Source: Candidatus Zhuqueibacterota bacterium
Lineage (GTDB): Bacteria; Zhuqueibacterota; Zhuqueibacteria; Thermofontimicrobiales; Thermofontimicrobiaceae
NCBI GenBank assembly: GCA_049322915.1
Contig: JBMOPW010000035.1
Coordinates: forward strand, 64,001-128,000
DNA: 64,000 bases
Direction of reading: 5' to 3'
A program made the translations under genes and the position numbers. Below the pieces are notes generated by a model. The model was not told the DNA's origin, made no database searches, and saw only the letters and a list, made by a program, of their open reading frames with translations. Of this stretch, positions 616-21,161 are shown piece by piece; position 1 is the first letter of the stretch, and each line of letters starts with the position of its first letter.

Positions 616-2577
616 TCACTCTTTCTTCGTCAATTTTTCGTATTCCATTCCATGCTCCAGCTTAATCGTTTCTTCCGACATTTTGCCGGTGAAACAGGTG
701 GTGTTCATGGGATAGACATGGGGATCGAAGAACTGGTAATAGAAATGCCAGACAATGATAGCAACCGTGGCCAGAATGGCTTCATAATAATGAGCGACGG
801 TGCTGACATCCGAGACCAATTTCGGGAAATACTTCAACGAGATATTTTCAAACCACAAAATGAAGCCGGTCACGCTCATCACAATGGTGCCCCAGATGAG
901 CGCCCAGTACTCCGCTTTTTCGATGTAGTTATAATACGCGAACTTCGGGCGATCTTTCCGCAGACCCAGATTGTACTGAACATTTTGAATCACATCGAAC
1001 AGATCCTTCAATTTGGGCAGCATTTCCGTAATATGCCGTTTGCCGCGTTTTGTGGTAATGACATAGAACACGTGATAGAACGCGAGCAGCACCATCAATC
1101 CGCCAGCCAGCCGATGCAGATATCCTCGCATGGCAAACCCGCCGTCCCAGCGGGTGAATGGCGCAGCCCACCACGCTTCAGGAAATTTCAGGGCAAAACC
1201 GGTGATCACCAGGGTGATGAATGTGCCCATCAAAATGAAATGCTGGATTCGTTCGTTCAGGGACAACCGCACCATGGTAATTCCGTGCGATAATTCCTCA
1301 AAACTGTGATCCTCCACCCCTTTGATTTTCGCCTTGAATTTATGGATGAAATCGATGAGATTGTGCATGAACATGCCGCCAATGGTACCCACGATGAGGA
1401 ATATATAAAATGTGGTCACATAATAGATTGTCTTCTGCGACGTGGACGATCCTTTGATATGAATCGACCCAATCGCAACCATGTCGCTCACGCCTGGATG
1501 GCAGCTACCGCATGTTTGCTGCAGATTGGCTTTATTAACGGATGACTTGGGGTCGCTGGAGTGCAGTATTTTATGAACACCATGGCAACTGGCGCAGTTC
1601 GCTGTGACGACTGACCCGGCGCGATTTGCCAGTCCATGATAGCTGTCGTTATAACTATCCACTGCTTCTTTTTTTAGTCCGTACTTGGTGACGATCTGTT
1701 CTGCTTCATGACATCTCGGACAGGTTGTCTTTGAAATGACGGTTGAAAAGACCGTCGATTTCGGGTCGGTATGGGATTTAATATCATGTTCGGTATGGCA
1801 ATCGGTACATACCGGTGAATCCGTTGCGCCCGCCAACAATCCCTTGCCATGCACGCCAGCCATATATTCATCGAAAATTCCCTGGTGGCATTGCGCACAT
1901 GTCCTGGGAATATTGAACTTATTTGTCAGAGAAACCGGATTGCTGGAAGGCTGTAAATTGTGAGCGCCGTGACAATCGCTACATTTGGCTGCCTGCATAT
2001 TTCCTTCCTCAAGCGCAGAGCGGTAATGGATGCTCGTTTTATACGCCGCTGCCGGCTCTGAAATCGGAATATTGAACTTTTTCACAATGTTGGGATCAGA
2101 ATGACATTCACCGCAGATTTCGGGTTGATTCAGAACGAACATTGTTGACAGCGAGTCATCGATGGGGAACACGTAATGGGAGGTGTGGCAACTCCAGCAC
2201 TCAGGCGCCTCGAGATTGCCTTTGGCCAGGCTCTTCCCGTGAACGCTGGCCATATACTCCTGAGTCACATCGTCGTGGCAATTCCCGCAGTTCGGTTTTT
2301 CAAGTTTTTCGTCATGCGGAAGTTCGGTGATGGCGCTGTGACAATCGACGCAGGAAAGTCCGGCATGAACTGAATTGGAAAATTTTTCGAAATGGACAAA
2401 GAGGCTATCCTCCTTCCCATCTTCGTTCAGCCGGGTCAATGCCTTGTCGCTGTGGCATTCCATGCAGTCTTCGCTTGAAATATCCTGGCTCGCTCCAATT
2501 CCGGGAAATAGCAATACCATGGAAATTATGAAAGTCAGATAAACCGAAACCAACTTGCCTGTCATACTGTTCCTCAT
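616..2577 (-). CDS. Multiheme (11 CXXCH) cytochrome c fused to a C-terminal cytochrome b/FdnI-like membrane domain (CbcL-like)
   Basis: Signal peptide, 11 CXXCH motifs counted, then TM helices with ERIQH, LHR, EKAEYWAL and AHYYEA motifs. Confidence 0.9.
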   Translation of the reverse strand: MRNSMTGKLVSVYLTFIISMVLLFPGIGASQDISSEDCMECHSDKALTRLNEDGKEDSLFVHFEKFSNSVHAGLSCVDCHSAITELPHDEKLEKPNCGNCHDDVTQEYMASVHGKSLAKGNLEAPECWSCHTSHYVFPIDDSLSTMFVLNQPEICGECHSDPNIVKKFNIPISEPAAAYKTSIHYRSALEEGNMQAAKCSDCHGAHNLQPSSNPVSLTNKFNIPRTCAQCHQGIFDEYMAGVHGKGLLAGATDSPVCTDCHTEHDIKSHTDPKSTVFSTVISKTTCPRCHEAEQIVTKYGLKKEAVDSYNDSYHGLANRAGSVVTANCASCHGVHKILHSSDPKSSVNKANLQQTCGSCHPGVSDMVAIGSIHIKGSSTSQKTIYYVTTFYIFLIVGTIGGMFMHNLIDFIHKFKAKIKGVEDHSFEELSHGITMVRLSLNERIQHFILMGTFITLVITGFALKFPEAWWAAPFTRWDGGFAMRGYLHRLAGGLMVLLAFYHVFYVITTKRGKRHITEMLPKLKDLFDVIQNVQYNLGLRKDRPKFAYYNYIEKAEYWALIWGTIVMSVTGFILWFENISLKYFPKLVSDVSTVAHYYEAILATVAIIVWHFYYQFFDPHVYPMNTTCFTGKMSEETIKLEHGMEYEKLTKKE

Positions 2578-3134: not shown

Positions 3135-4460
3135 ATGGAACTGAATCCATCCCTGACAAACGATATATTAGACTCAATTGGCGAAGGATTGTTCACAGTA
3201 AATAAGGATTTTAAGATTAATTATTTTAATCGGGCTGCCGAGCGAATTACAGGTCTGAAACGCAAGGACGTCTACGGCAAATTTTGCAAACATATTTTTA
3301 AGTCAAATCGATGCTTCATCAAATGCCCGATCGCCCATGTTTTGGAGACAGGGAAAAACATCTATGACCTGGAATCGAAGATCAGAAACGTCAATGGCAA
3401 TTTCATCCCGATCAAAATGAACGTCTCCATTCTGCGCAACAACGAAAATGAGCCGGTGGGCGGCGTGATTTCCTTTCGCGATATATCCGAGTTGGAGATA
3501 TTGCGTGATAAGCACATCAAAAAGAACCTGTTTTATGGCATCATCGGCCACACCAAAGTGATGCAGGAAATCTTCGAATTGATCGAGGAGATTTCCGATT
3601 CGGATGCCACTGTGCTCATTCAGGGTGAATCCGGCACAGGTAAGGAAATGGTTGCCAACGCCGTACAGGCCACAAGTCTGCGCAAAGATCAGCCGTTTGT
3701 CAAAGTGAACTGTTCGGTTTTCACGCCGCAACTTCTGGCCAGCGAGTTGTTTGGTCACGTGAAGGGCGCGTTCACCGGAGCAATAAAAGAGCGACCGGGT
3801 CGATTTGAAATTGCGGACGGTGGGACCATATTCCTGGATGAGGTCGGCGAAATGCCTCTGCAAATGCAGTTGCAGCTGTTACGGGTGCTGCAGGAAGGCA
3901 CCTTCGAGCGGGTTGGCGAATCGGAGACGCGCCGCGTTGACATTCGGGTGATTGCCGCGACGAATAAAAATATCAAAGCATCCATCGCAGATGGGCATTT
4001 TCGGGAGGATTTGTACTATCGGCTCAACGTGATTCCCATTGAAATTCCTCCGATCAAAAAGCGCCCGGAAGACATCCCGCACCTGATAAAACATTTTTTG
4101 AAAAAATTTTCATTGATCTATAATAAAAACATACACGACATCGATGATACTGCGCTCGAATTACTCACCCATTATCCCTGGCCGGGCAATGTCCGCGAAT
4201 TGGAAAATGCCCTGGAGTACGCGTTTGTGCGGACGAAAGATAAAAAGATTATCGAAGCGATTAAATTGCCGCCGAATGTTCGGGAGCACGCTGACTTATC
4301 GTTGAATCAACCAGGCGCGTGTGAAATCGATAGCGAGTCTTCTCACATCATGCACTTACTGGAAAAATATCAATGGAATAAAACGAAAGTCGCCAAAGAA
4401 CTTGGCATTGGTCGCAGCACGCTCTGGCGCAAAATGAAATCCTTCACTGAGAAGGCCTGA
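3135..4460 (+). CDS. PAS-domain sigma-54-dependent transcriptional activator with C-X8-C-X3-C motif (OrpR-like)
   Basis: PAS N-terminus containing CKHIFKSNRCFIKC, GESGTGKE Walker A, GAFTGA loop, C-terminal HTH. Confidence 0.9.
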   Translation: MELNPSLTNDILDSIGEGLFTVNKDFKINYFNRAAERITGLKRKDVYGKFCKHIFKSNRCFIKCPIAHVLETGKNIYDLESKIRNVNGNFIPIKMNVSILRNNENEPVGGVISFRDISELEILRDKHIKKNLFYGIIGHTKVMQEIFELIEEISDSDATVLIQGESGTGKEMVANAVQATSLRKDQPFVKVNCSVFTPQLLASELFGHVKGAFTGAIKERPGRFEIADGGTIFLDEVGEMPLQMQLQLLRVLQEGTFERVGESETRRVDIRVIAATNKNIKASIADGHFREDLYYRLNVIPIEIPPIKKRPEDIPHLIKHFLKKFSLIYNKNIHDIDDTALELLTHYPWPGNVRELENALEYAFVRTKDKKIIEAIKLPPNVREHADLSLNQPGACEIDSESSHIMHLLEKYQWNKTKVAKELGIGRSTLWRKMKSFTEKA

Positions 4461-4686
4461 GTGAATCGGGGCGCTGCCATCCGCCCTGTCGAACCATTTG
4501 AAATCACGCTACCAGTGAATCATCAGTTCGGCCATTGCTCAATGAAATAGCCGTCGAATACTGTCATGGAGAAATTGTGTTGAAGAAAGTTGAGCGCAGT
4601 TGCTTGACGCCATCAGCAGCAGCGAGAGGGCAGATTTGGAGTGCAGTTTCAGGATCAACTATCATCGTGGCTGTGTTTCGTTTCAA

Positions 4687-4705
4687 GCGAAACACTTTGT
4701 TTCAC
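4687..4705. promoter_or_regulatory. Putative enhancer (bEBP binding site)
   Basis: GCGAAAC-ACTTT-GTTTCAC; the 16-mer AACACTTTGTTTCACA also occurs at 2939-2954. Confidence 0.55.
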
Positions 4706-4828: not shown

Positions 4829-4844
4829 TGGCATGAAATTTGAT
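4829..4844 (+). promoter_or_regulatory. Sigma-54-like promoter with variant -12 element (TTGA)
   Basis: TGGCATGAAATTTGAT = GG-N10-GA, followed by RBS GAGGGA and ATG at 4869. Confidence 0.55.
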
Positions 4845-4868: not shown

Positions 4869-5318
4869 ATGTCTGAAATGTTAGGAAATCAATATTTTTT
4901 AACGCGCAAATACGCGCTTGCCGCTCGGGAACTCGAATCGGCTCTGGTGAAAGATCCGCGAAGTAAAGTCATTCGACGGAAGCTCATCATTTGTTTTATC
5001 CAGACCGGCAACATTGACAAGGCGGAAGAACTGTTTCTGGACCTCGTCCAACAGGACGTATCGTTCATCATTGAATCAGATCCTATCATCGATGACTGTC
5101 CCTGTCCGGAACTGGTAAACGATGTCGAGGCGCAGATAGCCGGCGAGAAAAACTCGCCTTCGTACATGTTGAAGTTGGGCATGCTCTGGTTGTATTGTGA
5201 CATTAGAAAATCGATTCACTATTTCACGAGTTTGCAAAAAATTGAACCGAACAATCAAATGGTAAAAATTGTGCTATTCCATCTCAAGTCATTTTTGTTG
5301 AGCAAAGAGGTATTGTAG
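4869..5318 (+). CDS. TPR-like protein with a CPC motif
   Basis: Helical repeat pattern and DDCPCPEL; start moved from 4833 to the RBS-preceded ATG at 4869. Confidence 0.65.
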   Translation: MSEMLGNQYFLTRKYALAARELESALVKDPRSKVIRRKLIICFIQTGNIDKAEELFLDLVQQDVSFIIESDPIIDDCPCPELVNDVEAQIAGEKNSPSYMLKLGMLWLYCDIRKSIHYFTSLQKIEPNNQMVKIVLFHLKSFLLSKEVL

Positions 5319-5407
5319 CACTTTGGCGTAAGTAAGAAACACTGGAAATAATCACTGTATTTTAATCCGTCGTTACATGTCATTAAATTGTTAGCAGAGA
5401 GGAACAA

Positions 5408-6733
5408 ATGAAAGTAAAACTTTTTACCATTTGTAGTCTGTTGCTACTCTCCATGATTCTTATTTTTACCTGGGGATGTACTGATAAATACAAACCCGCT
5501 CCCAGCGTTTTCTCCTCTGTGGAAGAATCAAGTTGTACGCACTGTCACCTTGATGCAACTCTACTGAAACAAGTGGCCACGCCAATTCCCCCGGATGAAG
5601 GCGAATCAGGCGAGGGTTGAGGCGGCGCTGTGTCTCAGTTAGAGGCATGGGAAATGGTACTTGTTGATAACAGTTTTCTGAATACAAAACACGGCAGCTT
5701 CGGATGCACGTCATGTCACAAGGGTAATAAAGACGCGTACGACAAAGAGACCGCTCACGTCAGCCTGGTCGCTGCGCCGAGCGAAAATGATGCCACGTAC
5801 TGCTCCGGTTGCCATGAGGATATTGTGGCTCATTATGCATCCTCCCTTCACAAGACACAAAAAGGGTACTTCAAGCGAATCGAAAATCGATTGGGGTACA
5901 GCATAGAAAGTGACGCGGGCATAATGGAGAAATATGATGAGGAATGCGGGAAATGCCATGTCAGTTGTGGGCAATGCCACATCTCCCGACCGGTTTCAGT
6001 AAAAGGCGGATTCATCGCCGGGCACAATTTTGGCGCGCCGACGCGGGATAACAATTGCGTGGCATGTCACGGCAGCCGCGTTGGGGCAGAATACCTCGGA
6101 CAAAACGAAAACTATGCGGCTGATGTCCACCGCTACAAACCAGGCGGCAGCAATTGCACCATGTGCCACACCGGCATGGAAATGCACGGGACCGGCGAGG
6201 AATTCGACTACCGTTACCTGAATACGGATATGCCGCGCTGTGAAAATTGTCATGCAGATGTCGACACAATTAATTTCTACCATCAAAAGCATGTGTCCAG
6301 CACCACGATACCGACGCTCTCCTGTCAGGTATGCCATTCACAGGATTATAAAAACTGCAATAGCTGCCACACCGGCGGCGCCGGCATTACCGGGGATTCC
6401 TATTTCAAATTCAAGATTGCCAAGAATAAATTCAATCTCGAATCTGCAAACCGTACCTATGATTACGTGGCAGTCCGGCACATTCCGATTGCGCCGGACA
6501 CATACGCAAGTTGGGGAATAACTGATTTACCAAATTACAACACTGAACCTACGTGGAAATATGCAACGCCGCACAACATTCAACGCTGGACCGCTCGGAC
6601 AGATACGACGGGTAGCACCCGATGCTCGAGCAAATGCCATAATTCGACGACCTATTATTTAACTTCAGCCGACTTATTCGACTATGAAGTCGAAGCAAAT
6701 AAAGATATTATTATGGACGACAAACTCAAATAG
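5408..6733 (+). CDS. Probable selenocysteine-containing multiheme cytochrome c lipoprotein (441 aa, Sec71, 10 CXXCH + 1 CX3CH)
   Basis: ORFs 5408-5620 and 5630-6733 are in frame across TGA 5618-5620 (...ESGEG-U-GGAVSQLEAWE...). Only the first part has a lipoprotein signal (TWGC). A SECIS-like hairpin follows the TGA. Confidence 0.8.
5630..5648 (+). promoter_or_regulatory. Bacterial SECIS-like hairpin
   Basis: GUGUCUC-AGUUA-GAGGCAU; the loop starts 16 nt after the UGA and has G at loop position 2. Confidence 0.7.
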
Positions 6734-6778
6734 AAACACTTAATTCATTTCAAATCATTTAATTTAGGAGGTACAGAG

Positions 6779-7783
6779 ATGTACAAGAAAATTCCTGTTC
6801 TGTTCTTGATTTTATCATTAGCTTTGTTCATGGTAGTTGGTTGCGATGACGACGAAACCACGGAACCTGAAGAAATTAATGAGTTCGAACTGTTAACGGA
6901 AGTCGGTGATGTTTACGTTGCTAATTACACAACCCAGGGTGGGTTGGGCGTCAACACGACCATCACTGCTGTATTCGACAACCTGACAGACGGCAATACC
7001 GCCAATGATCCGTATATCATTGACTACCGCTCCGCTGCGGATTACGCGATTGTTCATATTAAAGGCGCCCATTCAATGGCCATGACCGATCTGGTCGCGA
7101 AACTTGATGATGGCACCATTCCCAAAGATAAAACCATTTTGAACGTTTGCTACACCGGTCAAACGGCAAGCTCCGCCACTGCATTTTTGAACCTGTTAGG
7201 ATACGAAGCACAGAACCTGTCTTACGGCATGTGCTCGGTCGATACATCCTTCAGTAACACCAAACAGTGGAAAAACGCTGTGAAAACTGACGAACATGCC
7301 GGCGATGTTGTCTCTACAGCTTCCACCACCACGACAACACACGATTTCCCGACGCTGTCCACAGGTGGAACCACCGCCGAAGAAATCTTCAAAGCACGTT
7401 TCAATGAAGTGATTGCCGCAAGCTGGCCCAAAATTGATGCCAACTTAGTGTGGGATAATCCAGGCAACTACTTCATCGTCAATTACTGGCCGGCCGCCGA
7501 ATATACCAATCCAGGCCATATTCCCGGCGCTTACCAGTTCTCACCAAATACAACGCTGCTCAGCACAGCGCAGTTAAACCTGTTGCCGACGGATAAAACC
7601 ATTGTGGTTTACTGCTACACTGGTCAGACATCGGCTCAGATTTGTACCTATCTGACCATGCTGGGCTACGATGCAAAGAGCTTGCTGTACGGATTCAATG
7701 GTTTCGCTCATGGAATTATGACGAAAAACAAGTATGCCGGTTCAGCAGCACCTGGAACATACGATGCTATTTTAGAAAAATAA
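6779..7783 (+). CDS. Tandem rhodanese-domain (sulfurtransferase) lipoprotein
   Basis: Lipobox VVGC; two rhodanese domains with HIKGA/HIPGA and active-site loops VCYTGQTA and YCYTGQTS. Confidence 0.9.
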   Translation: MYKKIPVLFLILSLALFMVVGCDDDETTEPEEINEFELLTEVGDVYVANYTTQGGLGVNTTITAVFDNLTDGNTANDPYIIDYRSAADYAIVHIKGAHSMAMTDLVAKLDDGTIPKDKTILNVCYTGQTASSATAFLNLLGYEAQNLSYGMCSVDTSFSNTKQWKNAVKTDEHAGDVVSTASTTTTTHDFPTLSTGGTTAEEIFKARFNEVIAASWPKIDANLVWDNPGNYFIVNYWPAAEYTNPGHIPGAYQFSPNTTLLSTAQLNLLPTDKTIVVYCYTGQTSAQICTYLTMLGYDAKSLLYGFNGFAHGIMTKNKYAGSAAPGTYDAILEK

Positions 7784-7796
7784 CTTAACGAGAACG

Positions 7797-7835
7797 AGCG
7801 GCATTCTTTCACAGTGGAAGAATGCCGCTTTCATT
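7797..7835 (+). terminator. Intra-operon stem-loop/terminator between rhodanese and porin
   Basis: AGCGGCATTCTT...AAGAATGCCGCT followed by TTCATTTATT. Confidence 0.7.
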
Positions 7836-7864
7836 TATTAAAACTTAAGCTGAGTAAACGAGCT

Positions 7865-9058
7865 ATGATACCAAAAATAAGAATAGGTCTTCTCAGTCTA
7901 TTGATGGTCTCTTTGAGTGTTGGCTATGTGTACGGGATCGATTTTCACGGCAAAACGTCCAACACCGTTTATAGCTATGAAGATACAACTCAACATACTC
8001 GCCTGTTTCAATTCATTCGCTTTAGCCTGGAATCACCCAAATTGAGCAACCTCTCTCTGAATACATCTCTCAGAGCTTTAACCGATCTCAACGAAACACT
8101 GGAAGACGAACAGCGATTCAAAGCTTACGCGCTCAATTTGCAGTACAAAAATCTGTTCAACCGAGTCGATCTCGTCCTCGGGCGCCAGTTTCTCCACCCG
8201 GGCGCCGCACTTGGAGGATTGGACGGTCTGTACACCAAAGTCAAAATTTCGAACCGAATGAATATCTCGGCGTACGCTGGCGCAGAAGCCCACTTCAACA
8301 GCAGCCTCAAAATTTACAAATCAGAGGACAGTTTTGTCGCCGGCGGCTTATTCGAAATGAATCGGTTCTTCTCCACAGGGACGCAATTGTTTTACCTGCA
8401 AAAATCCAATGAAGACGGATTGTTCTGGCAACTCGCCGGACTGAACCTGACCAATAGCTCGTTGCCCCGGACCAATGTCCGGTTGCAAGCGCACTTCGAT
8501 CTTCAAACATCCGCTTTTCACAGGTTGATGTTCTCGGCTAAACATGATGTGAATGATAAAATTTCACTCAATGCCGGCTTTAAAAATCAAATGCCGCAAA
8601 TCTACGCCAACTCCTTTTTCACACTATTTGATGTCGACGGTTACACCCAATTCAATGCTGGCTGCACCTACAAAATGGTTCAGAATCTCTTTCTGAGCGG
8701 GCAGTACCAACTCGTCCAGTTCGACCAGGAGTCGGCCAACCGCATTTTTTTCACCGTCAATAATCTGAACGGCAGCATTGGCGTCATTTATGAGACAGGA
8801 TACGCCGGCGAACAATTGGGGCTCATTCTCGACTATGCCCATTCCATCACACCTGCGTTGTTAGCGTCGATCAACATTGATTATTCCCGGTATAAAACAG
8901 AAAAAGTGTTCGAATACGAAAATCAGATCGCCAATGCGGTACGATTATCCTATCGTTTTCAACGTCACTGGTCCATCGATCTAGAGTATCAATGGTTGAC
9001 AAACCGTTTTAAAGAACAGGATTCACGAATTTTAAATCATGTCCACTTTAGTTGGTAA
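7865..9058 (+). CDS. Outer-membrane beta-barrel (porin of a porin-cytochrome complex)
   Basis: Signal peptide from ATG 7865, alternating beta-strand pattern, C-terminal aromatic residue (HVHFSW), directly upstream of multiheme genes. Confidence 0.75.
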   Translation: MIPKIRIGLLSLLMVSLSVGYVYGIDFHGKTSNTVYSYEDTTQHTRLFQFIRFSLESPKLSNLSLNTSLRALTDLNETLEDEQRFKAYALNLQYKNLFNRVDLVLGRQFLHPGAALGGLDGLYTKVKISNRMNISAYAGAEAHFNSSLKIYKSEDSFVAGGLFEMNRFFSTGTQLFYLQKSNEDGLFWQLAGLNLTNSSLPRTNVRLQAHFDLQTSAFHRLMFSAKHDVNDKISLNAGFKNQMPQIYANSFFTLFDVDGYTQFNAGCTYKMVQNLFLSGQYQLVQFDQESANRIFFTVNNLNGSIGVIYETGYAGEQLGLILDYAHSITPALLASINIDYSRYKTEKVFEYENQIANAVRLSYRFQRHWSIDLEYQWLTNRFKEQDSRILNHVHFSW

Positions 9059-9070
9059 GGGATAATAATC

Positions 9071-9949
9071 ATGAAAAAAATTGTATGTGTCGTGCTGGGG
9101 CTTCTTGTTGCTTTCTTTTTAAGCAATGTCTCAACGGCCCAGGAATTAGAACTCATCTTTTCCCATAAATATCACGCCATAGAGGTTGAAGCAGAATGCG
9201 AAGCCTGTCATGCTGCCTCGGCAAGCATGCTGTCAACCGATAACCTGTTGCCCGACATGGAAAAATGTTATACCTGCCACAGCCAGGATGAAGAATGCAG
9301 CAAATGCCACAAAGACCCGGACAATGCCATCGTCTATCCCCGAATCACGGATTACATCGCCAAGTTCCCGCACAGCACACACGCTGCCAAAGGACTGGCC
9401 TGCGAAAAATGTCATGCCGGAGTCGCTGAAAGTGGCAACATCCTGGAAAAACACCTGCCAACCATGGCCAGTTGCACCGACTGTCACGATCAGCTTGCCC
9501 GGGAGAATTATTGCTATACCTGCCATAACACCGGCGAGGCCCTGAAGCCTGGCGATCACAATTTAGCCTGGAACAAGGAGCATGGATTGGCTTCATACAC
9601 GGCCGATAACTCCTGCAAAACCTGCCATCCGGACGATATGTGTTTGAATTGCCACCGCGGCGATAATCTGGATCATCAGGTGCACTCACTGAATTTTGTG
9701 AATAATCACAGTCTCCAGGCAAAGGGCAACAAAGAGAATTGCTACACCTGTCATGAAGAATTGTCCTTCTGCGTCGACTGCCATCGCCAGCGAATGGTGA
9801 TGCCGCGGAACCACGCGACAGCGAGTTGGTCCAATACTTCTTCCGGAGGTGGGCATGCGCGAGCCGCGAAACTGGATATGGATTCATGCCTGAGCTGCCA
9901 TTCCGATGCCGCTGGAGATCCTGTGTGCGTTCAGTGTCACCAGAAATAA
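9071..9949 (+). CDS. Periplasmic dodecaheme cytochrome c
   Basis: Signal peptide; 12 CXXCH motifs counted. Confidence 0.9.
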   Translation: MKKIVCVVLGLLVAFFLSNVSTAQELELIFSHKYHAIEVEAECEACHAASASMLSTDNLLPDMEKCYTCHSQDEECSKCHKDPDNAIVYPRITDYIAKFPHSTHAAKGLACEKCHAGVAESGNILEKHLPTMASCTDCHDQLARENYCYTCHNTGEALKPGDHNLAWNKEHGLASYTADNSCKTCHPDDMCLNCHRGDNLDHQVHSLNFVNNHSLQAKGNKENCYTCHEELSFCVDCHRQRMVMPRNHATASWSNTSSGGGHARAAKLDMDSCLSCHSDAAGDPVCVQCHQK

Positions 9950-9992
9950 GTTCAATGTATTGTGGAAAATTGACGTCTTAGCCTGAGGGTGA

Positions 9993-10415
9993 ATGATGAA
10001 AACTTTTTTTACTCTGCTCATACTATCTCTGTCCACGGCTCTCGTCATTCTGAGCTGCGCGGAAGATAAAAATCCATTACCAAGCACCTCGCATCCGGAT
10101 GAATGGAATACTGTTGGCGCCGATAACTTCCATGGCAGCAAAGTATTAGCCGTCGGATCCAGTTCATGCAAAAGCTGTCACGGCGTCGACCTTAAAGGAA
10201 GCGACACCGGCGAAAGCTGTTTCAAATGTCACCAGAGCTATCCCCACTCCGAGGAATGGATGATGGCTGACAGTGATAATTCTCACAGTGAATATATCAA
10301 AAAGAATAGCGACGCCATGAATAAATGTAAAAACTGCCACGGCAGCAATCTGACCGGCGGGAAAAGCGGCGTCTCCTGTTTCAAATGTCATGCGGCTGAT
10401 ACATTGCCATTGTAA
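9993..10415 (+). CDS. Tetraheme cytochrome c lipoprotein
   Basis: Lipobox ILSC; 4 CXXCH in two internally repeated units (CKxCHG.xLxG...SCFKCH). Confidence 0.85.
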   Translation: MMKTFFTLLILSLSTALVILSCAEDKNPLPSTSHPDEWNTVGADNFHGSKVLAVGSSSCKSCHGVDLKGSDTGESCFKCHQSYPHSEEWMMADSDNSHSEYIKKNSDAMNKCKNCHGSNLTGGKSGVSCFKCHAADTLPL

Positions 10416-14257: not shown

Positions 14258-15430
14258 TCACTCGAAAGATTTGCGTTGGAAGTACTCGCTGTAAGCCGCC
14301 CACAGGCTGGTAACAAAACGCTCCGTGTCGTCTGCCGGTTTCCCTTCTGCCTGTTGCAATGATTCTTCCAATTTAGTGTTGATCATCTTGCTGATCTCGT
14401 GAAATCTATCAATTTCCTTCTGATACCATTGCATTGTGTCCGAGCCAATCTTCAGCCCCGGCAGTTCATTGCTGAGATTCTCCGGTTCGATGTTGCACAT
14501 CCATCCAAGTTCATACGGCTTGATATTGACATAATCGATATGGTCTTCGAGATTGGCATTGATCGATACCACGGTTCCGCTGATGGGAGCGGGAAAATTC
14601 AGGGACTGGTCGCCGCGCTGCACGGTGAACAGCAAATCACCTTTTTTGACTTTCTGCCCCTTCTTTGGCAGAACAACGCTTTTGATTTTGCTCAAAATCT
14701 TTTGGGAGAAATCATCGATGCCGACGCGCGCCAATCCGTTCAAATCAATTCTGACCCAGGTGTGAGTCGGCGCTATGAAAATCCCGGCTGGCACATTAAA
14801 TTCATGGCTTGATTTGGACTCGCCGTGCGAAGGAGTAATGAGATGCACCGCCGGCTTGGTGACACGCTCGATCTTGTCCTGGCGCCGGATTAACGACTTG
14901 TTGACAAAATCCACCAATTCATCTTCAGTGAATGGCTTTTGCACATAATCCGTGGCGCCGTATTTCATGGTCGCCACAGCGGTTTCAATGGTCGCGTAGC
15001 CGGTGATGACGATGATATCGATATCCGGACGCAGATGTTTTGCAGCCTTGGTCACTTCAACGCCATCCATCACTGGCATTTTCAAATCCGTGAACAGGAA
15101 ATCGTATTCGGTCTTCTTCAAAAGCCCCAGGGCCTCGGGACCGGTCTCCACGGTATCGATTGAATATCCGGCCAGCACCAGTATTTTTCGGAAACTTGCC
15201 AGTACCACTTCTTCATCGTCCACTGCCAGAATTTTAGCTTTGGGATGGTCGACTTCGACCCGTTTCAGGGATTTGGCCTCTTCCGTGAAATCTAACCGAA
15301 GGCCAATGTCCAGAGCTTCTTCCCGTTCTTTCTTAAGTTTGGAATGCTCCATTTTTTTAAGAACGATTCGTAAAACGGCGTCAGCCAGAATGAAAATAAT
15401 AACGGTTACAATCAGAAATAAGACGACCAT
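14258..15430 (-). CDS. Membrane-anchored response regulator receiver fused to a GcvH-like domain
   Basis: N-terminal TM, REC domain (LAVDDE...DLKMP...KPF), then HTWVR..VGIDDF..APISGTV..N..PYELGW. Confidence 0.8.
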   Translation of the reverse strand: MVVLFLIVTVIIFILADAVLRIVLKKMEHSKLKKEREEALDIGLRLDFTEEAKSLKRVEVDHPKAKILAVDDEEVVLASFRKILVLAGYSIDTVETGPEALGLLKKTEYDFLFTDLKMPVMDGVEVTKAAKHLRPDIDIIVITGYATIETAVATMKYGATDYVQKPFTEDELVDFVNKSLIRRQDKIERVTKPAVHLITPSHGESKSSHEFNVPAGIFIAPTHTWVRIDLNGLARVGIDDFSQKILSKIKSVVLPKKGQKVKKGDLLFTVQRGDQSLNFPAPISGTVVSINANLEDHIDYVNIKPYELGWMCNIEPENLSNELPGLKIGSDTMQWYQKEIDRFHEISKMINTKLEESLQQAEGKPADDTERFVTSLWAAYSEYFQRKSFE

Positions 15431-15506
15431 AATTTCTCCTTCCTAATAGAATGATAATTGGGTACCACGTGCGCAGGATATTCAATGCATCATTCGCCTC
15501 ATTCAC

Positions 15507-16301
15507 TTAGATGCGGCGAAGGCTCAAGTTATTCAGGTCTTTCTCCAGATTTGTCGGAACGACTTGAATCAGCCAGCCATCATGATACGGAGAGGTATTT
15601 AATTTATCCATCTCGCGTTCCAGGCGCTTGTTCAAAGCGACAATCTTACCGCCTAGTGGCGCCCACACCATGTGATTGAGATAGTCTTCCGAGATAATTC
15701 GCACACATAAATTCCCCTGTGATATCTCATTATTGACAAGCGGGAATTCTATTGAATTGATCGTTCCCATGCAGCCAGCGAACGTTTCCCCCAAACCCAG
15801 CGTGCAGATGCCGTCGCTATTCAATTTTGTCCAGGAGTGCTGACCTAATAAATAATACGGCGCTCCTTCGCTATTCTGCTGCGCGTCGTTCTGGAGTTGT
15901 AGGGATGATTGCGTTTCAGTTGCCCGTTCACTGAATTTCTTCGCACGAAAAATGACGCCAGCCAATTCTTCAAAATCAAACGGTTTGGGAATACAATCAA
16001 ATGCACCTGTCCTGAAAATTTTCACGGCATTGGCGTGTGAAGCATAGCCGGTGATGATGATGATTGGAATTGTCGCATTCAATTTTCTGGCATATTCGAT
16101 CACTTCGATTCCGGATTTACCAGGCAACATGAGATCCGACAGTATTAATTGATATTGATTTTTATCGAGTTTATCGAAAGCGCCCTCTGCGCTTTGCGCC
16201 ATATCGACATGAAATCCTTCGACGCTTAATATTCGTCTGGCTGCTTCAGCAACCACCAGTTCATCTTCGACCAGCAGAATATGATTATTTGGGTTCGTCA
16301 T
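15507..16301 (-). CDS. Response regulator receiver fused to a GcvH-like domain
   Basis: REC domain (LLVEDE...DLMLP...KPF) plus HSWTK...APLGGKIVALN...SPYHDGWL. Confidence 0.8.
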   Translation of the reverse strand: MTNPNNHILLVEDELVVAEAARRILSVEGFHVDMAQSAEGAFDKLDKNQYQLILSDLMLPGKSGIEVIEYARKLNATIPIIIITGYASHANAVKIFRTGAFDCIPKPFDFEELAGVIFRAKKFSERATETQSSLQLQNDAQQNSEGAPYYLLGQHSWTKLNSDGICTLGLGETFAGCMGTINSIEFPLVNNEISQGNLCVRIISEDYLNHMVWAPLGGKIVALNKRLEREMDKLNTSPYHDGWLIQVVPTNLEKDLNNLSLRRI

Positions 16302-17832
16302 GATTACATTTCGCAGATTCTTTTTTCGAACTGTCGCTCACCGGCAAACTCAACGTAAACGTTGTTCCTTTGCCCACTTCACTTTTCACTTCAATTTTCC
16401 CGTTGTGCTCTTCAACGATTCCCCAGACCACCGCCAACCCGAGGCCGGTGCCTTTCTGCCCCTTGGTGCTGTAAAACGGATCGAATATTTTTGAAAGATT
16501 CTCCAGGGGAATGCCACAGCCGAAGTCGGTGACATTGACTACAATACAATCCCGCTCTTTCACAATCACCCGTTCGGTAGAAATTAAAATTTCTCCGCCT
16601 TTGGGATCCATGGCATCCGCGGCATTCACTAACAAATTGATGAATACCTGCTGCAATTGATTGGCGTCCGCTTTAATCTCAGGCAAATCACCCGGTGAAT
16701 TCACCCGAACCGAGACATTCTTGAGATTCAATTGATTGCTCAGAATGTGTATTGTTCGCTCGATCACATCATCGATCCGAACAATCGAAATTTTCGCCGG
16801 CTCCTGGCGCGCGAAATCCAACAACCGTTTTACAATTTCGCGGCAACGCTTGCTCTCATGGACAATCACCTCCAGATCGCTCTTCACATCACTCGGTAGA
16901 TCCTTGCGCTTCAATAGAATGCTGCTGAACGAAAGCACGCCAGTGAGCGGATTGTTAATTTCATGAGCAATGCCGGACGTCAGCCGTCCCAATGACGCCA
17001 GCTTATCGGATTGGTAAAGCTGACGCTGCACCGCAGCGAGTTTACTGGTCATCTCGTTGAACGATTGCTCGAGAAAACCTAACTCATCATTTTTGAATTT
17101 ATCGATCTTGTATTCGAGATTTCCTGCAGCAACGATCTTCGTCGCCTTTACCAACTGGTCCACCGGCTTGCCTACCAGGTTATGTACCAAACCCAGGAGG
17201 AGCAAACTGATTGTAATGATTGCACAGACGGTAAGTAAAATGATTTTTGAACGATTGGCATGTATCTGTTGTTCCACTTCATCCAGCCTCATAGTAATAT
17301 CGAGTACACCCAGCACCGTTTGACTTTCAGGATGAGCGTGACACTCCGCCTGCCAACACCCCGGAGCATTGTAAATTGGATTGATAATAGCCAACTGCAT
17401 CTTGCCATCTCGGTTTTTAAATACTCGGGCCCGTTCCGGAATCGTCAACTTTTCCAGCGGCGCACCAACTGCATGGCAGACAAAACAGGATTCCGCTTTT
17501 TTATCCACAAGCTGGCCAATTTCCGTGCTGTCTGTGGAATAAGTGATTTCACCGAGCTTATTGAAAATGCGAATTTTATCCAGGCCTTCCTGATCGCCGA
17601 ATCCCTCGATGATGCGATAGATATGCTGCGGCTGATCCTGCAACATATCATATTCAGTTGCATTCTTGATCGTCTCACTGCACTGACTGGCGCGGTTCTT
17701 CAACTGGTCAATCATCGCTTTTTGCTCGGACTCGATGATGAAAAAAGAAAAAATTGTAATGATCGAAATGGTCACACCACACACAGCAAGTATGAGCTTA
17801 TAACTTATTTTATTGATGCTGGAATATACCAC
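16285..17832 (-). CDS. HAMP sensor histidine kinase with a periplasmic heme-motif domain
   Basis: CFVCH and CWQAECH; AHEINNP; GTGLGL; paralog of 10728-12326. Confidence 0.9.
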   Translation of the reverse strand: MVYSSINKISYKLILAVCGVTISIITIFSFFIIESEQKAMIDQLKNRASQCSETIKNATEYDMLQDQPQHIYRIIEGFGDQEGLDKIRIFNKLGEITYSTDSTEIGQLVDKKAESCFVCHAVGAPLEKLTIPERARVFKNRDGKMQLAIINPIYNAPGCWQAECHAHPESQTVLGVLDITMRLDEVEQQIHANRSKIILLTVCAIITISLLLLGLVHNLVGKPVDQLVKATKIVAAGNLEYKIDKFKNDELGFLEQSFNEMTSKLAAVQRQLYQSDKLASLGRLTSGIAHEINNPLTGVLSFSSILLKRKDLPSDVKSDLEVIVHESKRCREIVKRLLDFARQEPAKISIVRIDDVIERTIHILSNQLNLKNVSVRVNSPGDLPEIKADANQLQQVFINLLVNAADAMDPKGGEILISTERVIVKERDCIVVNVTDFGCGIPLENLSKIFDPFYSTKGQKGTGLGLAVVWGIVEEHNGKIEVKSEVGKGTTFTLSLPVSDSSKKESAKCNHDEPK

Positions 17833-17931
17833 TTTTTATCCTCACAGTTTTATTATCGATCTCCGGTCAGCATTTCATGACCCAAATGGCAAACGCATCA
17901 CTCGAACTTCTGTTCCTTGAACTGATTGCTT

Positions 17932-18735
17932 TCAACACGTAATGTCACCCAGCACACTGGTCACTAAATTGAGATAGTGCTCGGGAGGCAATGAATTGAT
18001 CAGATCCCTTGAAAATACGCCCATGTCATCCAGCAGAATATCTGATGTGAGCGAACCGGCCTGGCAGGTCTCTGACAGTTTGTACTCCAGCCATTTCATT
18101 TCATCCAGATACCAGGAGAATAACGTCTCTCCATTTCGACAATATGAAAGATCCTGGCTTAAATTTTTTGGTTCCACAATCAACATCCACCCGCGATTCA
18201 CCGGATCGAGCGTCAACTGGTTCGGCGCGAGTTGCAGTTCTGGATTCACGACTTTGATCCGGCCAGCTACCGGCGTCGGAATGGAAAAATTGTACTTCCC
18301 GCGTTTCACGTGGCCACAGCATCCGCCTTTTGTAATTTTTTCATCGACGCGGGGAAGCGTGATTTCATCGACAGAACCTAATACAACAGCGGCGACATTA
18401 TCAATGCCCAGTTTCACCTCGTGGGGACCAACAATCTCGATCCAGACATGCCGGGAACTGACAAAATAATTTTCACTCTGCTTGATTTTCACCAGGTGAT
18501 CGAGCGATGAAAAATATCTGAATGAATTGCGCGTGATAACGCTGGCGTCGGTGAAAAATCCCCGCAACGCCTTCTCCAACGGGCAGTTTTCGCACTCAAA
18601 ATTTCTATTGCAAATCTTGTAGGATAACTCTCCCAGTTCAACCCAATCACAGACACTATCACTTTTATCGATCAAGTGGGATAATGGTTTTGGTCTGGAA
18701 TTTCCCATGAGTATAAATCCCTTCTCATCTGACAT
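17932..18735 (-). CDS. Cys-rich domain fused to a GcvH-like domain
   Basis: C-D-W...KIC...FECENC followed by HVWIE..LGIDN..TPVAGRI..N..DPVNRGW. Confidence 0.75.
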   Translation of the reverse strand: MSDEKGFILMGNSRPKPLSHLIDKSDSVCDWVELGELSYKICNRNFECENCPLEKALRGFFTDASVITRNSFRYFSSLDHLVKIKQSENYFVSSRHVWIEIVGPHEVKLGIDNVAAVVLGSVDEITLPRVDEKITKGGCCGHVKRGKYNFSIPTPVAGRIKVVNPELQLAPNQLTLDPVNRGWMLIVEPKNLSQDLSYCRNGETLFSWYLDEMKWLEYKLSETCQAGSLTSDILLDDMGVFSRDLINSLPPEHYLNLVTSVLGDITC

Positions 18736-19022: not shown

Positions 19023-19940
19023 TTGGAACTAACAAGAAGAAACTTTCTGAAATTCACTGCAGCCACCGGCACAGTGGGCATTGCCGGTGCTGCGAAGAAA
19101 GCGTCTGCTTATTCAGAAAAGCCTCTTGCAGCAGAATGGATGGGAGTGCTGGTCGATACGACAGTCTGTATTGGTTGTCGCAAATGTGAATGGGCCTGCA
19201 ACACTGCCAACAAGCTTTCTGAAAAATCCATTACTGAGTTCGAGGATAAGTCCGTGTTTGAGCAAATGAGAAGGCCGGACGATACCGCCTACACCGTCGT
19301 CAACGAGTATGAAAACACGAAAAACCTGCAACTCCCCTATCATGTCAAAGTCCAATGCATGCATTGCAATAGCGCGGCATGCGTCTCGGCATGCATCGTC
19401 GGAGCGCTGACAAAACACCAGCAAACAGGAACCGTTCATTACGATCCCTGGAAATGCATCGGGTGTCGCTACTGCATGGCGGCATGCCCATTTCAAATCC
19501 CTGCATACGAGTATCACAACGCATTGACGCCTCAGATTCGCAAGTGTACATTCTGCTTCGATCGGATTACACAGGCAGGTGGTATCCCTGCCTGCGTTGA
19601 GATATGCCCGGTCGAAGCGCTCACCTTTGGAAAGAGGAACAGCCTGATTCAGGTGGCGCGCGAAAAAATTGCCAGACAGCCCGAACGATACGTCGATCAT
19701 ATCTATGGCGAGCACGAATTGGGCGGAACCTCGTGGATGTACCTTTCTGGCCGACCCATGGAGGAAATGGATATGGAACGTTTCGGCAATCGCCCGATTC
19801 CCCAATATACCGAACCAATCCAGCATGCGATTTTTAAAAATTTTATACCGCCGCTTTCCTTGTTCGCGTTCCTGGGCATCATCATGAAATTGTTCAAAGA
19901 CAGGGACAATGGCCATTCAAAGGAAGGAGGTTCAAAATGA
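19023..19940 (+). CDS. Tat-exported 4Fe-4S protein (HybA/HmcB/NrfC-like)
   Basis: TTG start after GGAGG, RRNFLK Tat motif, CIGCRKCEWAC, CMHC..AACVSAC, CIGCRYCMAACP, KCTFC...ACVEICP, C-terminal TM. Confidence 0.9.
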   Translation: MELTRRNFLKFTAATGTVGIAGAAKKASAYSEKPLAAEWMGVLVDTTVCIGCRKCEWACNTANKLSEKSITEFEDKSVFEQMRRPDDTAYTVVNEYENTKNLQLPYHVKVQCMHCNSAACVSACIVGALTKHQQTGTVHYDPWKCIGCRYCMAACPFQIPAYEYHNALTPQIRKCTFCFDRITQAGGIPACVEICPVEALTFGKRNSLIQVAREKIARQPERYVDHIYGEHELGGTSWMYLSGRPMEEMDMERFGNRPIPQYTEPIQHAIFKNFIPPLSLFAFLGIIMKLFKDRDNGHSKEGGSK

Positions 19941-21127
19941 GTTCTCACCATGTCGCTGCTAAACCTGTGAACAAGAAATTTTTCACAACCGGCGTAAAAA
20001 TACTGTTCGCACTGTTTGGAACCGGAATGGCCTTTGGCCTGTATCGTTTCATCTTTGGCCTGGGTTCGGTCACCCATTTGAACAACCAATTTCCACTGGG
20101 TTTATGGATTGGCGTTGACGTTGCCAGCGGCGTTGCGCTGGCTGCAGGCGGATTCACGACAGCCGCATTGATTCATATTTTCTACCGCGACAAATACGCT
20201 GTATTCGGAAGGCCGGCGCACCTCACCGCGATGCTGGGATACACTTTTGTAGCCCTCGGCCTGTTATTCGACCTGGGCCGATGGTATAACGTCTGGCATC
20301 CAATGCTGCCGATGATGTGGCAGGGGAATTCCGTGCTCTTCGAAGTCGGCATCTGCGTGATGATGTACCTGACGGTTCTTTACATTGAATTCGTACCCAT
20401 TGTTGCTGAGCGCTTCATCGGAAAATCGCCCAAATGGATCGATTCGATCCTGAGAGTCCTCAACAGGATACTGGATAAAATCATGTGGATTTTCATCATC
20501 CTTGGGGTATTATTATCCTGTCTGCACCAATCTTCACTGGGGAACCTCATGGTCATTGCTCCCTATAAAATGCATCCGTTATGGTACACTCCAATTTTGC
20601 CGCTATTATTCCTTGTCTCGGCGATCGCTGTCGGCCTGCCCATGGTTATCTTTGAATGTACCATTGCCTCGAAATCGTTCGGCTGCAAACTGGAAATGGA
20701 CGCTTTAACGCCGCTATCCCGCATCGTCGCTGTGCTGCTGAGCCTGTACCTCTTCCTCAAGGTCGGTGACCTTACCATTCGCAACGCCTGGGGATACATT
20801 TTCGATGGCACCTATCAGACCAACTTCTTCTTGCTGGAGTTAGTCGCTGGCATTCTGGTTCCGCTGATCATGTTTCTGATGAAGAAGGTGCGGCAATCCC
20901 CGCCTCTGTTATTCACGGCAGCAGCCTTATACATCGTATTCGGCGTATTACTGAATCGAGTCAATGTATTTTTCATTGCCTATCGACCTAAATATATGAC
21001 GGAGCCGTATGTGCCGGCCATCGGAGAAGTGGCAGTCACAGTCGGCCTTATTTCCGCGCTGATGATATGCTATCGGATCATTGTCACAATTTTTCCAATT
21101 CTTCCGGCGCAGGCGAAAGACTCGTAG
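19937..21127 (+). CDS. NrfD/HybB/HmcC-family membrane subunit
   Basis: GVALAAGG, DLGR, LFEV..C, LHQSSLG motifs; multiple TM helices. Confidence 0.9.
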   Translation: MSSHHVAAKPVNKKFFTTGVKILFALFGTGMAFGLYRFIFGLGSVTHLNNQFPLGLWIGVDVASGVALAAGGFTTAALIHIFYRDKYAVFGRPAHLTAMLGYTFVALGLLFDLGRWYNVWHPMLPMMWQGNSVLFEVGICVMMYLTVLYIEFVPIVAERFIGKSPKWIDSILRVLNRILDKIMWIFIILGVLLSCLHQSSLGNLMVIAPYKMHPLWYTPILPLLFLVSAIAVGLPMVIFECTIASKSFGCKLEMDALTPLSRIVAVLLSLYLFLKVGDLTIRNAWGYIFDGTYQTNFFLLELVAGILVPLIMFLMKKVRQSPPLLFTAAALYIVFGVLLNRVNVFFIAYRPKYMTEPYVPAIGEVAVTVGLISALMICYRIIVTIFPILPAQAKDS

Positions 21128-21161
21128 AATTTCAAAAAACTTATTTCAGGAGAAATGAACA

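Follow-up and report, generated by a model that had tools for sequence, protein, structure and literature searches.

The window analysed here, a 64,000-nt stretch of Candidatus Zhuqueibacterota bacterium (GCA_049322915.1, contig JBMOPW010000035.1, positions 64,001–128,000 of the forward strand), encodes side by side a candidate selenocysteine (Sec)-containing multiheme cytochrome, a rhodanese and a porin–cytochrome conduit. To our knowledge, the enzymes of S0 and thiosulfate respiration in anaerobes lacking Dsr or molybdo-reductases are largely unknown. Our analysis indicates that the operon probably serves to reduce, at the cell envelope, either polysulfide or sulfur of the thiosulfate type.

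Organisation and probable regulation of the locus

The six open reading frames that the initial annotation had described as a single co-oriented cluster all lie on the + strand at the positions it proposed, and a gene-neighbourhood survey recovered the gene order in many genomes. The cluster consists of two modules, the first comprising the Sec-cytochrome (5408..6733, +) and a double rhodanese (6779..7783, +), and the second an outer-membrane β-barrel (7865..9058, +), a 12-heme periplasmic cytochrome c (9071..9949, +; 12 CxxCH) and a small 4-heme lipoprotein cytochrome (9993..10415, +; 4 CxxCH), with a terminator-like hairpin (7796..7830, +; 16-pair stem) between the two.

The remaining gene (4869..5318, +) encodes a cytoplasmic TPR protein (Pfam TPR_19) with a CPC motif and no signal peptide; its homologs begin MSEML, in agreement with the start originally called, and 20 of 26 carry a CxC motif. 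It had been counted as part of the redox cluster, but it groups with a sigma-54 regulator, an activator match being present in 22 of the 27 loci with the TPR gene, and the protein probably has a regulatory role rather than one in the redox chain. In the window, a PAS-domain sigma-54 enhancer-binding protein (3135..4460, +; Pfam Sigma54_activat, PAS, HTH_8) is the probable activator of the operon. A sigma-54 −24/−12 promoter-like site (4829..4843, +) matches 9 of 11 positions of the consensus; scores of at least 9/11 were obtained in 18/26 upstream regions versus 1.5% of shuffles, and a sigma-70 promoter scan gave matches at chance level only. The palindrome at 4675..4695 is a candidate activator-binding site, and 10 of 26 regions, counting the variant in the window, have a related palindrome 100–270 bases 5′ of where the TPR gene starts.

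On the opposite strand (616..2577, −), an inner-membrane protein combines 11 hemes with a cytochrome b (Pfam Cytochrome_C7, Ni_hydr_CYTB) and is one that we take to be CbcL-like. Its homologs occur close to the cluster in several loci, in both orientations, and it is a candidate quinol-side electron source.

The selenocytochrome and its rhodanese partner

Codon 71 of the cytochrome gene is an in-frame TGA (5618..5620, +; GEG-U-GG context) that is conserved across loci: 52 of the 59 non-redundant loci from genomes retain it, as do 60 of 68 classifiable metagenome loci (80 fetched), natural Cys codons (TGT/TGC) occur in two genome loci and the Cys form in four metagenome loci, and neither TAA nor TAG was found at this codon among the classified genome and metagenome loci. 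The SECIS-like hairpin that follows (5628..5648, +; loop AGUUA, z −2.0 in the window) has a mean z of −2.0 against synonymous shuffles (25 sequences), compared with −0.17 in 144 control segments, and, of 83 distinct TGA segments, 82 carry a G within the first two bases of the loop. The genome also contains selA, selB, the tRNA-Sec gene (selC) and selD, so that a conserved TGA aligned with Cys, a SECIS-like hairpin with a loop G and the full sel gene set, which are the features of a bacterial selenoprotein, coincide here, and the Sec-multiheme lipoprotein first proposed stands as a real selenoprotein candidate. The presence of selA in 39/44 cytochrome genomes versus 130/167 overall is weak evidence in the same direction. 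That the TGA is a true stop, giving a 70-residue monoheme lipoprotein and then a separate 10-heme protein from GTG at 5630, is highly improbable: an SD-like GAGG overlaps the TGA, gene callers take the GTG start (116 of the 120 matches listed cover 72–83% of the query), the hairpin is not significantly weaker in non-TGA segments (p 0.34; six segments, one of them mis-picked) and a 90% complete genome with the TGA form (G140) has no selA match, but the segment downstream of the TGA has no signal peptide of its own and therefore would be out of reach of heme c maturation, contiguous forms with Cys, Arg, Leu or Ile at this codon exist, the codon was never classed as TAA or TAG, and hairpin conservation exceeds the amino-acid requirement.

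The selenocytochrome has 11 hemes, as it carries ten CxxCH motifs and one conserved CxxxCH, and nine axial-type His are available to them, fewer than one each. The best structural match of its model was Shewanella OTR (SO4144, PDB 1sp3; Z 9.3, rmsd 4.5, 263 aligned), far ahead of HAO (4.4) and ONR (4.3), and comparison with OTR profiles (hhalign) gave a probability of 98.8; the heme spacing is colinear with that of OTR, and C180–H184 aligns with the heme II motif. Judged from the model, the protein shares the heme-packing core of the OTR/HAO/ONR structural superfamily and belongs to it. It differs from the 8-heme OTR in having two more N-terminal hemes and one inserted heme, a lipid anchor and the Sec loop, and in that the position of Lys56, the heme II ligand, is not conserved. 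No match was obtained to the OTR model TIGR04315 at E 0.01, to any NCBIfam model (June 2026) or, with Foldseek against the PDB, at E 0.001 or better; a separate true OTR is encoded in the same genome (contig C7).

The family comprises 2315 matches, from KSB1-like, Calditrichota, Desulfobacterota, Chloroflexota, Actinomycetota and Bacillota records, and its cultured hosts include Dethiobacter alkaliphilus, Desulfovibrio ferrophilus and Desulfitibacter alkalitolerans. A 2026 review, which lists an OTR-family selenoprotein, does not have it in its table of 119 families, and no publication calling it a selenoprotein was found in the open literature, as distinct from subscription journals, bioRxiv supplements and the BSepDB supplementary list. 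Public annotation routinely shows these selenocytochromes as leaderless truncated proteins. The Sec-cytochrome family is uncatalogued and the barrel family unnamed.

The adjoining gene encodes a double rhodanese lipoprotein, as had been claimed: its 334 residues contain two Pfam Rhodanese stretches, and the active-site-type C124 and C279 (CYTGQT), one per domain, are invariant in 46 aligned double rhodaneses. On sequence grounds each domain has a sulfurtransferase active-site Cys loop. The rhodanese adjoins the selenocytochrome gene in 52/52 TGA genome loci and in all 26 TGA metagenome loci whose flanks reach at least 1.3 kb on either side, and the cytochrome was found in 36 of the 37 phylum genomes with a double rhodanese of this type; one homolog (P0135) is a natural fusion of the two. 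At all seven non-TGA genome loci the rhodanese is deleted or broken, yet the barrel and 12-heme genes are retained. This co-loss amounts to at least four changes on the tree (quick tree version), with metagenome locus L141 as one further case, and its repetition makes a direct link between Sec and a sulfur carrier. Because an intact rhodanese persists at four metagenome loci of the Cys form, Sec as such is dispensable. The Bacteroidetes-type lipoprotein export pattern (PMC5080379) occurs in 20/40 rhodaneses and 0/14 small lipoproteins.

The initial inference of a sulfur role is backed by this co-loss and by a thiosulfate-induced cultured relative. D. alkaliphilus DealDRAFT_1917 is homologous to the selenocytochrome (34% identity, E 1e-68; E 4e-123 against the family profile), its protein begins immediately after the Sec position, and it adjoins a rhodanese (DealDRAFT_1917/1918 = WP_008516925.1, WP_008516926.1; known here from protein records, not DNA). 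Unlike the setting of the window operon, Dethiobacter is monoderm and without the barrel, and its clade lacks R161, Y314 and K315. Reported abundances of DealDRAFT_1917 were modestly higher on thiosulfate than on ferrihydrite (2.4-fold, q 0.032, 3 peptides) and those of SelB 2.1-fold higher (both PMC10376724 supplement), and the rhodanese, >100-fold more abundant, did not change significantly (PMC10376724). Cells of strain Z-1002 oxidising Fe(II) contained more of the homolog than did cells reducing Fe(III) (PMC10376724). The same study presents DealDRAFT_1917 as a signal-less SirA-like cytochrome, Sec going unmentioned in its main text.

The conduit module and its relation to known systems

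The AlphaFold2 model of the barrel (pLDDT 87) is plugless, with 22 strands counted from DSSP and a backbone diameter of approximately 40 Å by formula, with shear assumed. By fold it is most similar to usher and TonB-receptor barrels (Z approximately 19), MtrB is not among the best 50 fold matches listed, the barrel profile gave a single chance-level match against PDB sequences and no NCBIfam family was matched. The 12-heme gene adjoins the barrel in 31/33 loci and in 17/17 further regions with a recognised barrel, and its product is probably an insert of the barrel. The 4-heme lipoprotein is a short member of a repeat-built family and probably caps the conduit on the outside; by visual inspection of N-termini, 16 of 17 regions have relatives of it, with 3 to 24 hemes, close to the barrel. 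As gene content, the adjacency of a barrel, a periplasmic multiheme and a lipoprotein multiheme matches the layout of a porin–cytochrome conduit.

The analogy to Geobacter sulfurreducens extHIJKL drawn at the outset holds in part. A rhodanese lipoprotein lies beside a barrel of approximately 45 kDa, as with ExtH/ExtI, and like MccSep/ExtKL (GSU2937-2936) the selenocytochrome is a multiheme cytochrome c with one Sec from an in-frame UGA and a SECIS, encoded alongside these two partners. What does not carry over is the layout of the selenocytochrome and the conduit. MccSep, first described in 2026, is reported as a 5-heme tetramer, soluble in the periplasm, which has a His/Cys heme (C239), carries its U325 in a C-terminal Ig domain and reduces polysulfide by means of Sec plus heme, the authors leaving the passage of sulfur across the envelope open (PMC13510729); the protein here is a lipoprotein with 11 hemes and U71 in an N-terminal Gly-rich loop. 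The rhodanese likewise differs, with 334 residues as against the 49 kDa of ExtH. In the HMM comparison, the cluster parts are not Ext orthologs: the selenocytochrome gene had no match to NF040886 (MccSep/ExtKL, cut-off 250) even at E 1, the best score in the genome (34.6 bits) falling on another gene; the ExtH model (NF040901) was weakly matched by 3/46 rhodaneses (best E 7.6e-5); and no match to Ext models was found among 32 barrels, the presence of an ExtI model in the library being assumed. MccSep was also not among the structural matches of the selenocytochrome model, in a PDB copy that may not contain MccSep entries.

By layout, the conduit module resembles ExtABCD more than ExtHIJKL. ExtABCD and OmbB/OmaB/OmcB-type conduits are described as having a periplasmic dodecaheme cytochrome, an outer-membrane integral protein and swappable outer lipoprotein cytochromes (PMC6148476), a composition shared here, but ExtB has 18 membrane segments (PMC6148476) and MtrB 26 strands (PMC12133095), as against the 22 predicted for this barrel, and the 12-heme protein scores 20 bits against a cut-off of 192 for TIGR03508 (decaheme MtrA/DmsE).

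Proposed sulfane-sulfur reduction and competing readings

On balance we favour an operon encoding an extracytoplasmic sulfane-sulfur reductase, to which the rhodanese hands over sulfur, together with a wire able to feed it. The abundant membrane-anchored double rhodanese would load sulfane sulfur (polysulfide, S0 or thiosulfate) as Cys persulfides, and Sec71, on a flexible loop rich in Gly in the 11-heme lipoprotein, would attack these; the resulting Se–S bond would be reduced at a heme that lacks a distal His, probably heme 4 (C180–H184, at the OTR heme II position), and sulfide would leave. Electrons may run from formate or hydrogen through quinol and the CbcL-like cytochrome b/c to the 12-heme protein in the 22-strand barrel, with a putative transfer from there to the Sec enzyme. 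No dsrA was found in the genome (96% complete).

The two modules may also be mere neighbours under one promoter, the Sec enzyme working in the periplasm on inner-membrane electrons without contacting the barrel; this reading, compatible with sulfane-sulfur chemistry, is possible though doubtful. A hairpin with z < −2 lies 3′ of the rhodanese gene in 33/46 loci, and in P0131 the cytochrome is fused to an inner-membrane cytochrome b, which suggests that in some organisms it acts in the periplasm. The barrel is moreover widespread without the cytochrome. Module 2, present in 95 of 167 phylum genomes as against 44 for the selenocytochrome module, is a general conduit of the phylum. The one joint system originally envisaged resolves into separable parts, the barrel being present in 53/123 cytochrome-free genomes and the Sec-cytochrome/rhodanese pair in monoderm Bacillota. 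Against mere proximity, the modules adjoin each other at 33 of 59 loci, with varying gene order (barrel upstream in L012, L013 and L106), and the barrel is found in 42/44 cytochrome genomes versus the above 53/123, although kin are not independent. The occurrence of the barrel elsewhere in 5/5 genomes was discounted in view of that background.

We regard as unlikely that the cytochrome is mainly the outer electron-transfer subunit of a metal-reducing conduit, with Sec and rhodanese as accessories against fouling by sulfur or selenium or for selenite/tellurite detoxification. It does stay beside the barrel and 12-heme genes after loss of Sec and rhodanese, no other lipoprotein cytochrome adjoins these genes in G072 and G073, the surface reductase OcwA is a weak fold match (Z 4.0) and MccSep is reported to reduce selenite too (PMC13510729); yet Sec is retained in most loci, half of the TGA loci, like the monoderms, have the pair with no barrel next to it, and the conduit has a small-lipoprotein partner of its own.

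Quite unlikely, in our estimation, is the reverse direction, in which the pair would oxidise sulfide or polysulfide or serve sulfur disproportionation while the conduit exports electrons to Fe(III), Mn(IV) or partner cells. The genetic evidence is silent on direction, members occur in Desulfobulbus, Desulfolithobacter and Thermodesulfobacteriaceae records, conduits of the same layout export electrons in Geobacter (PMC6148476), and D. alkaliphilus AHT1 is reported to disproportionate S0 and thiosulfate (PMC10376724). However, levels of the Dethiobacter homolog go up during thiosulfate reduction, strain Z-1002 has the homolog yet is described as not disproportionating (PMC10376724), and the Sec-type formate dehydrogenase and Hmc-like genes also encoded in the window suit a reducing heterotroph.

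Some observations run counter to a sulfane-sulfur reductase, namely the modest Dethiobacter induction and the unchanged rhodanese there, the Fe(II)/Fe(III) pattern in strain Z-1002, the missing R161, Y314 and K315 in the Dethiobacter clade, the loss of OTR Lys56 and the dispensability of Sec in the Cys-form loci; counter to a feeding wire are the lack of an adjacent barrel in 26/52 TGA loci, its frequency in cytochrome-free genomes and the P0131 fusion.

Were the sulfane-sulfur reductase reading to hold, the locus could tentatively be seen as a second, independently evolved Se-dependent sulfur respiration, in which a surface OTR-fold selenoenzyme, a rhodanese persulfide and a 22-strand conduit would act on extracellular S0 or polysulfide, the pair being the missing thiosulfate/sulfur reductase of D. 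alkaliphilus and other anaerobes without Dsr or Psr. The Dethiobacter-type reductase would then have escaped notice because its gene is truncated at UGA in annotation, and the cultured hosts and existing proteomics data make the Sec-cytochrome hypothesis testable now.

Gene cluster and its candidate selenocysteine codon

All six co-oriented open reading frames described in the initial annotation were found on the forward strand: a TPR protein (4869-5318), a multiheme lipoprotein (5408-6733, TGA read as selenocysteine, Sec; hereafter the Sec cytochrome), a double rhodanese (6779-7783), a barrel (7865-9058), a 12-heme cytochrome (9071-9949) and a 4-heme lipoprotein (9993-10415). The closest named relatives are mostly labelled candidate division KSB1, with one same-genus record labelled Cytophagia. 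With TGA as Sec, the Sec cytochrome has 441 residues, a lipobox Cys24, U71 within GEG-U-GG, and 10 CxxCH motifs plus one CxxxCH, both cysteines of which are kept in 65 of the 66-67 longer relatives.

The in-frame TGA of this gene very probably encodes Sec. In the genome set of 59 non-redundant loci (25 + 40 regions less 6 duplicates; second copies and three fragmentary genomes of the phylum lie outside it), codon 71 was TGA at 52, a Cys codon at two and another residue or an altered loop at five. Among 80 metagenome loci, 60 carried TGA, four a true Cys, two Ile and two a miscalled Cys (5'-cut fragments), the other 12 being without class, and neither TAA nor TAG occurred at the Sec codon among the classes assigned. 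The 30 bases from +10 of the TGA had a mean folding z of -1.99 against synonymous shuffles (17/25 below -1.64), compared with -0.17 for control segments under the same measure (15/144 below -1.64), and 83 distinct TGA segments gave a mean z of -2.04; 82 of these have G in the first two hairpin-loop positions. The source genome contains selA, selB, tRNA-Sec and selD. Against these results a true stop at the TGA is highly improbable, even though hairpin strength did not discriminate TGA from six non-TGA segments (p 0.34) and 116 of the 120 homologs among the matches listed start 3' of the TGA, with coverage of only 72-83%. No signal peptide was found in the portion 3' of the TGA; a portion without its own signal peptide depends on read-through for cytochrome c maturation, so read-through would be required here.

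Two selD-family matches exceeded the cut-off in the source genome (G000:C2:57472-58398 and C14:562220-563146); one match has a TGA in frame, the other lies within a 736-codon frame. In the full-length database homologs P0149, P0152, P0172, P0199, P0240, P0402 and P0445, Trp occupies the Sec position or one next to it, and for some Trp-bearing homologs the gene caller may have read TGA as Trp instead of Sec being truly lost.

The Sec-rhodanese pair and the putative conduit module

Sec and the rhodanese behave as one unit. A rhodanese match was present at 52/52 TGA genome loci (two clipped by contig ends, two frameshifted) and at all 26 TGA metagenome loci having at least 1.3 kb on each side; it was not seen at two TGA loci with downstream DNA only, from a clade whose rhodanese is usually upstream. 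At the non-TGA genome loci the rhodanese was damaged or lost in 7/7, and the barrel and 12-heme genes were retained in 7/7. The two Cys forms carried a rhodanese with an internal deletion and frameshift (genome G087) or a 79-residue remnant (G088), and G071 a leaderless remnant; G002, G003, G072 and G073 had no rhodanese at the locus, and G002, G072 and G073 (97-100% complete) none anywhere in the genome. A quick tree of the post-loop region gave at least four changes from TGA, each nested within TGA forms. The metagenome locus L141 (Ile), where upstream DNA is short, followed the same pattern of rhodanese loss, but four Cys-form metagenome loci retain an intact rhodanese, counter to a strict Sec-rhodanese rule. 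Phylum-wide, the cytochrome occurred in 36 of the 37 genomes having this rhodanese, and the database protein P0135 fuses the Sec-cytochrome family to a rhodanese.

Variant architectures were also observed. A rhodanese of four domains (644 aa) adjoins the Sec cytochrome at locus L018 (6394-8325); in the database proteins P0131 and P0122-P0134 the cytochrome is fused to a multiheme/cytochrome b module, or to extra hemes and a C-terminal membrane anchor, one of these records being labelled Anaerolineae; and a 9-heme protein (~580 aa, signal peptide) lies within or after the cluster at L006, L007, L074, L081, L083 and L085 (two lineages).

As modelled, the barrel is 22-stranded and unplugged, and it superposes on barrels of the usher and TonB-receptor types (Z about 19). 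The 12-heme gene adjoins it in 31/33 loci, the remaining two being at contig ends. Of 18 barrel regions sampled at a distance from any Sec cytochrome, the barrel was recognised in 17, of which all 17 held a 12-14-heme gene and 16 a repeat-built lipoprotein resembling the 4-heme one (judged by eye). This layout is shared with that described for Geobacter ExtABCD, whose outer lipoproteins are reported to be exchanged between species (PMC6148476). The putative conduit is a separate, general module. The single coupled system first proposed is partly upheld: the six genes do stand together, but the barrel family (95/167 phylum genomes) occurs in 53/123 genomes without the Sec-cytochrome family, as against 42/44 with it, and the Sec pair adjoins the barrel at 26/52 TGA loci, with differing gene orders. 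Whatever the chemistry, it is doubtful, although with some weight, that the two modules are merely uncoupled neighbours. A further porin-like protein of no NCBIfam family (31716-32810, +) follows a formate dehydrogenase cluster and a thioredoxin-fold/FMN-binding-like protein.

Relatives, fold and proposed chemistry

The initial annotation had proposed a system analogous to Ext and possibly assembled independently of it. In the searches, the ExtKL model did not match the Sec-cytochrome gene, the ExtH model matched 3/46 rhodaneses weakly, and an NCBIfam search gave no match for the Sec cytochrome or the barrel. The cluster parts accordingly do not appear to be Ext orthologs. MccSep/ExtKL is described as a periplasmic pentaheme protein whose U325 sits in an Ig domain (PMC13510729), whereas the window protein has 11 heme motifs, U71 and a lipobox. 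The family table of a 2026 selenoproteome review has entries for ExtKL, for a GSU2204 barrel and for the OTR family, but none with the GEG-U-GG motif or the Sec-cytochrome layout (PMC13188914). The cluster would hold a selenoprotein family absent from catalogues. Functionally it would follow the ExtH/MccSep type of logic, but it is assembled from unrelated parts on a separable, ExtABCD-like conduit.

The AlphaFold2 model of residues 38-441, of high confidence overall (pLDDT 92.8, pTM 0.90), leaves the Sec loop unstructured (pLDDT about 75). A Foldseek search with the Sec-cytochrome model returned no significant match; in a wide VIA search octaheme tetrathionate reductase (OTR, 1sp3) scored best (Z 9.3, rmsd 4.5, 263 aligned), above HAO (4.4), ONR (4.3) and OcwA (4.0). 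The Lys56-ligated heme of OTR has a catalytic role. In a profile comparison with 25 same-class OTRs (probability 98.8), C180xxC183H184 lined up with the motif of OTR heme II, of which Lys56 is a ligand (PMC3769277), whereas this Lys is not retained in the Sec cytochrome. Across 148 aligned sequences, nine His outside the heme motifs are conserved at 93% or more, three of them interchanging with Met; on these counts, one or two hemes out of the 11 probably have no distal His. H358 (His in 130/148) is replaced by Arg, Gln or Asn, as would a pocket residue be; R161, Y314 and R357 are also conserved. We infer that Sec71 lies close to an open heme. A true OTR is encoded elsewhere in the source genome (G000:C7:2644-3906, TIGR04315, 596 bits), and TIGR04315 matches in 32/125 class genomes, with an internal stop in none.

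We lean towards sulfane-sulfur reduction, in which the rhodanese would bear sulfane sulfur as a persulfide, Sec71 would attack it, and the open heme in the OTR-like core would reduce the Sec adduct to sulfide. Electrons could come from quinol through a CbcL-like protein (616-2577) and, if the Sec enzyme is at the surface, also along the 12-heme/barrel wire.

A relative in the cultured bacterium Dethiobacter alkaliphilus bears on this chemistry. DealDRAFT_1917 has 10 hemes, no signal peptide and an adjacent rhodanese, in an organism described as lacking Dsr and molybdopterin sulfur reductases (PMC10376724). A search of protein records recovered WP_008516925.1. In its cluster stands MCW3489883.1, which is OMD50_RS07060, paired with DealDRAFT_1917 at 98% (PMC10376724 supplement). 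WP_008516925.1 matches the window Sec cytochrome at 34% identity over residues 82-438 (E 1e-68) and starts immediately past the Sec position; Sec is predicted in the D. alkaliphilus homolog. R161, Y314 and K315 are missing from the Dethiobacter clade. Because D. alkaliphilus is monoderm, it shows that the Sec-cytochrome/rhodanese pair is able to work without a barrel. On thiosulfate versus ferrihydrite, DealDRAFT_1917 was 2.4-fold up (q 0.032, 3 peptides) and SelB 2.1-fold up, whereas the adjacent rhodanese, itself >100-fold more abundant, did not change (PMC10376724). In strain Z-1002 the homolog was raised in Fe(II)-oxidising relative to Fe(III)-reducing cells (PMC10376724). Beside sulfane-sulfur reduction, a chiefly electron-transfer or detoxifying role is unlikely, and so is an oxidative or disproportionating direction.

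Regulation and genomic surroundings

A sigma-54-type site (4829-4843) recurs in 18/26 regions versus 1.5% of shuffles, and 10/26 also have a palindrome farther upstream; a strong hairpin lies 3' of the rhodanese in 33/46 loci, and a PAS sigma-54 activator accompanies the TPR gene in 22/27. Together, the site, the hairpin and the TPR/activator pairing fit one activated promoter, which would yield more transcript of the Sec-cytochrome/rhodanese module than of the conduit. The activator's PAS domain carries a Cys motif, C-x8-C-x3-CP (3135-3500, +; likewise at L074 and L093), possibly a metal or persulfide sensor.

GcvH-like domains joined to response-regulator or other domains lie amid two-component genes (14258-18735, -; 14258-15430 confirmed, 15507-16301 and 17932-18735 by eye); proteins of the GcvH kind can serve as sulfur carriers. 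An Hmc-like quinone-linked complex (19023-22292, +) comprises an HmcB/HybA-like Fe-S protein, an HmcC/HybB-like membrane protein and a 13-heme cytochrome, in a source genome with no dsrA. The formate dehydrogenase alpha subunit (25461-28487, +) has an in-frame TGA (26022-26024) in the usual Sec context, with beta and NrfD-like subunits downstream and FdhD- and FdhE-like genes upstream. Upstream of the window on the same contig (G000:C35:44622-48225) lie genes for a 19-heme protein of >920 aa and a 4-heme cytochrome, and L004, L012, L013 and L015 are likewise flanked by 17-19-heme genes.
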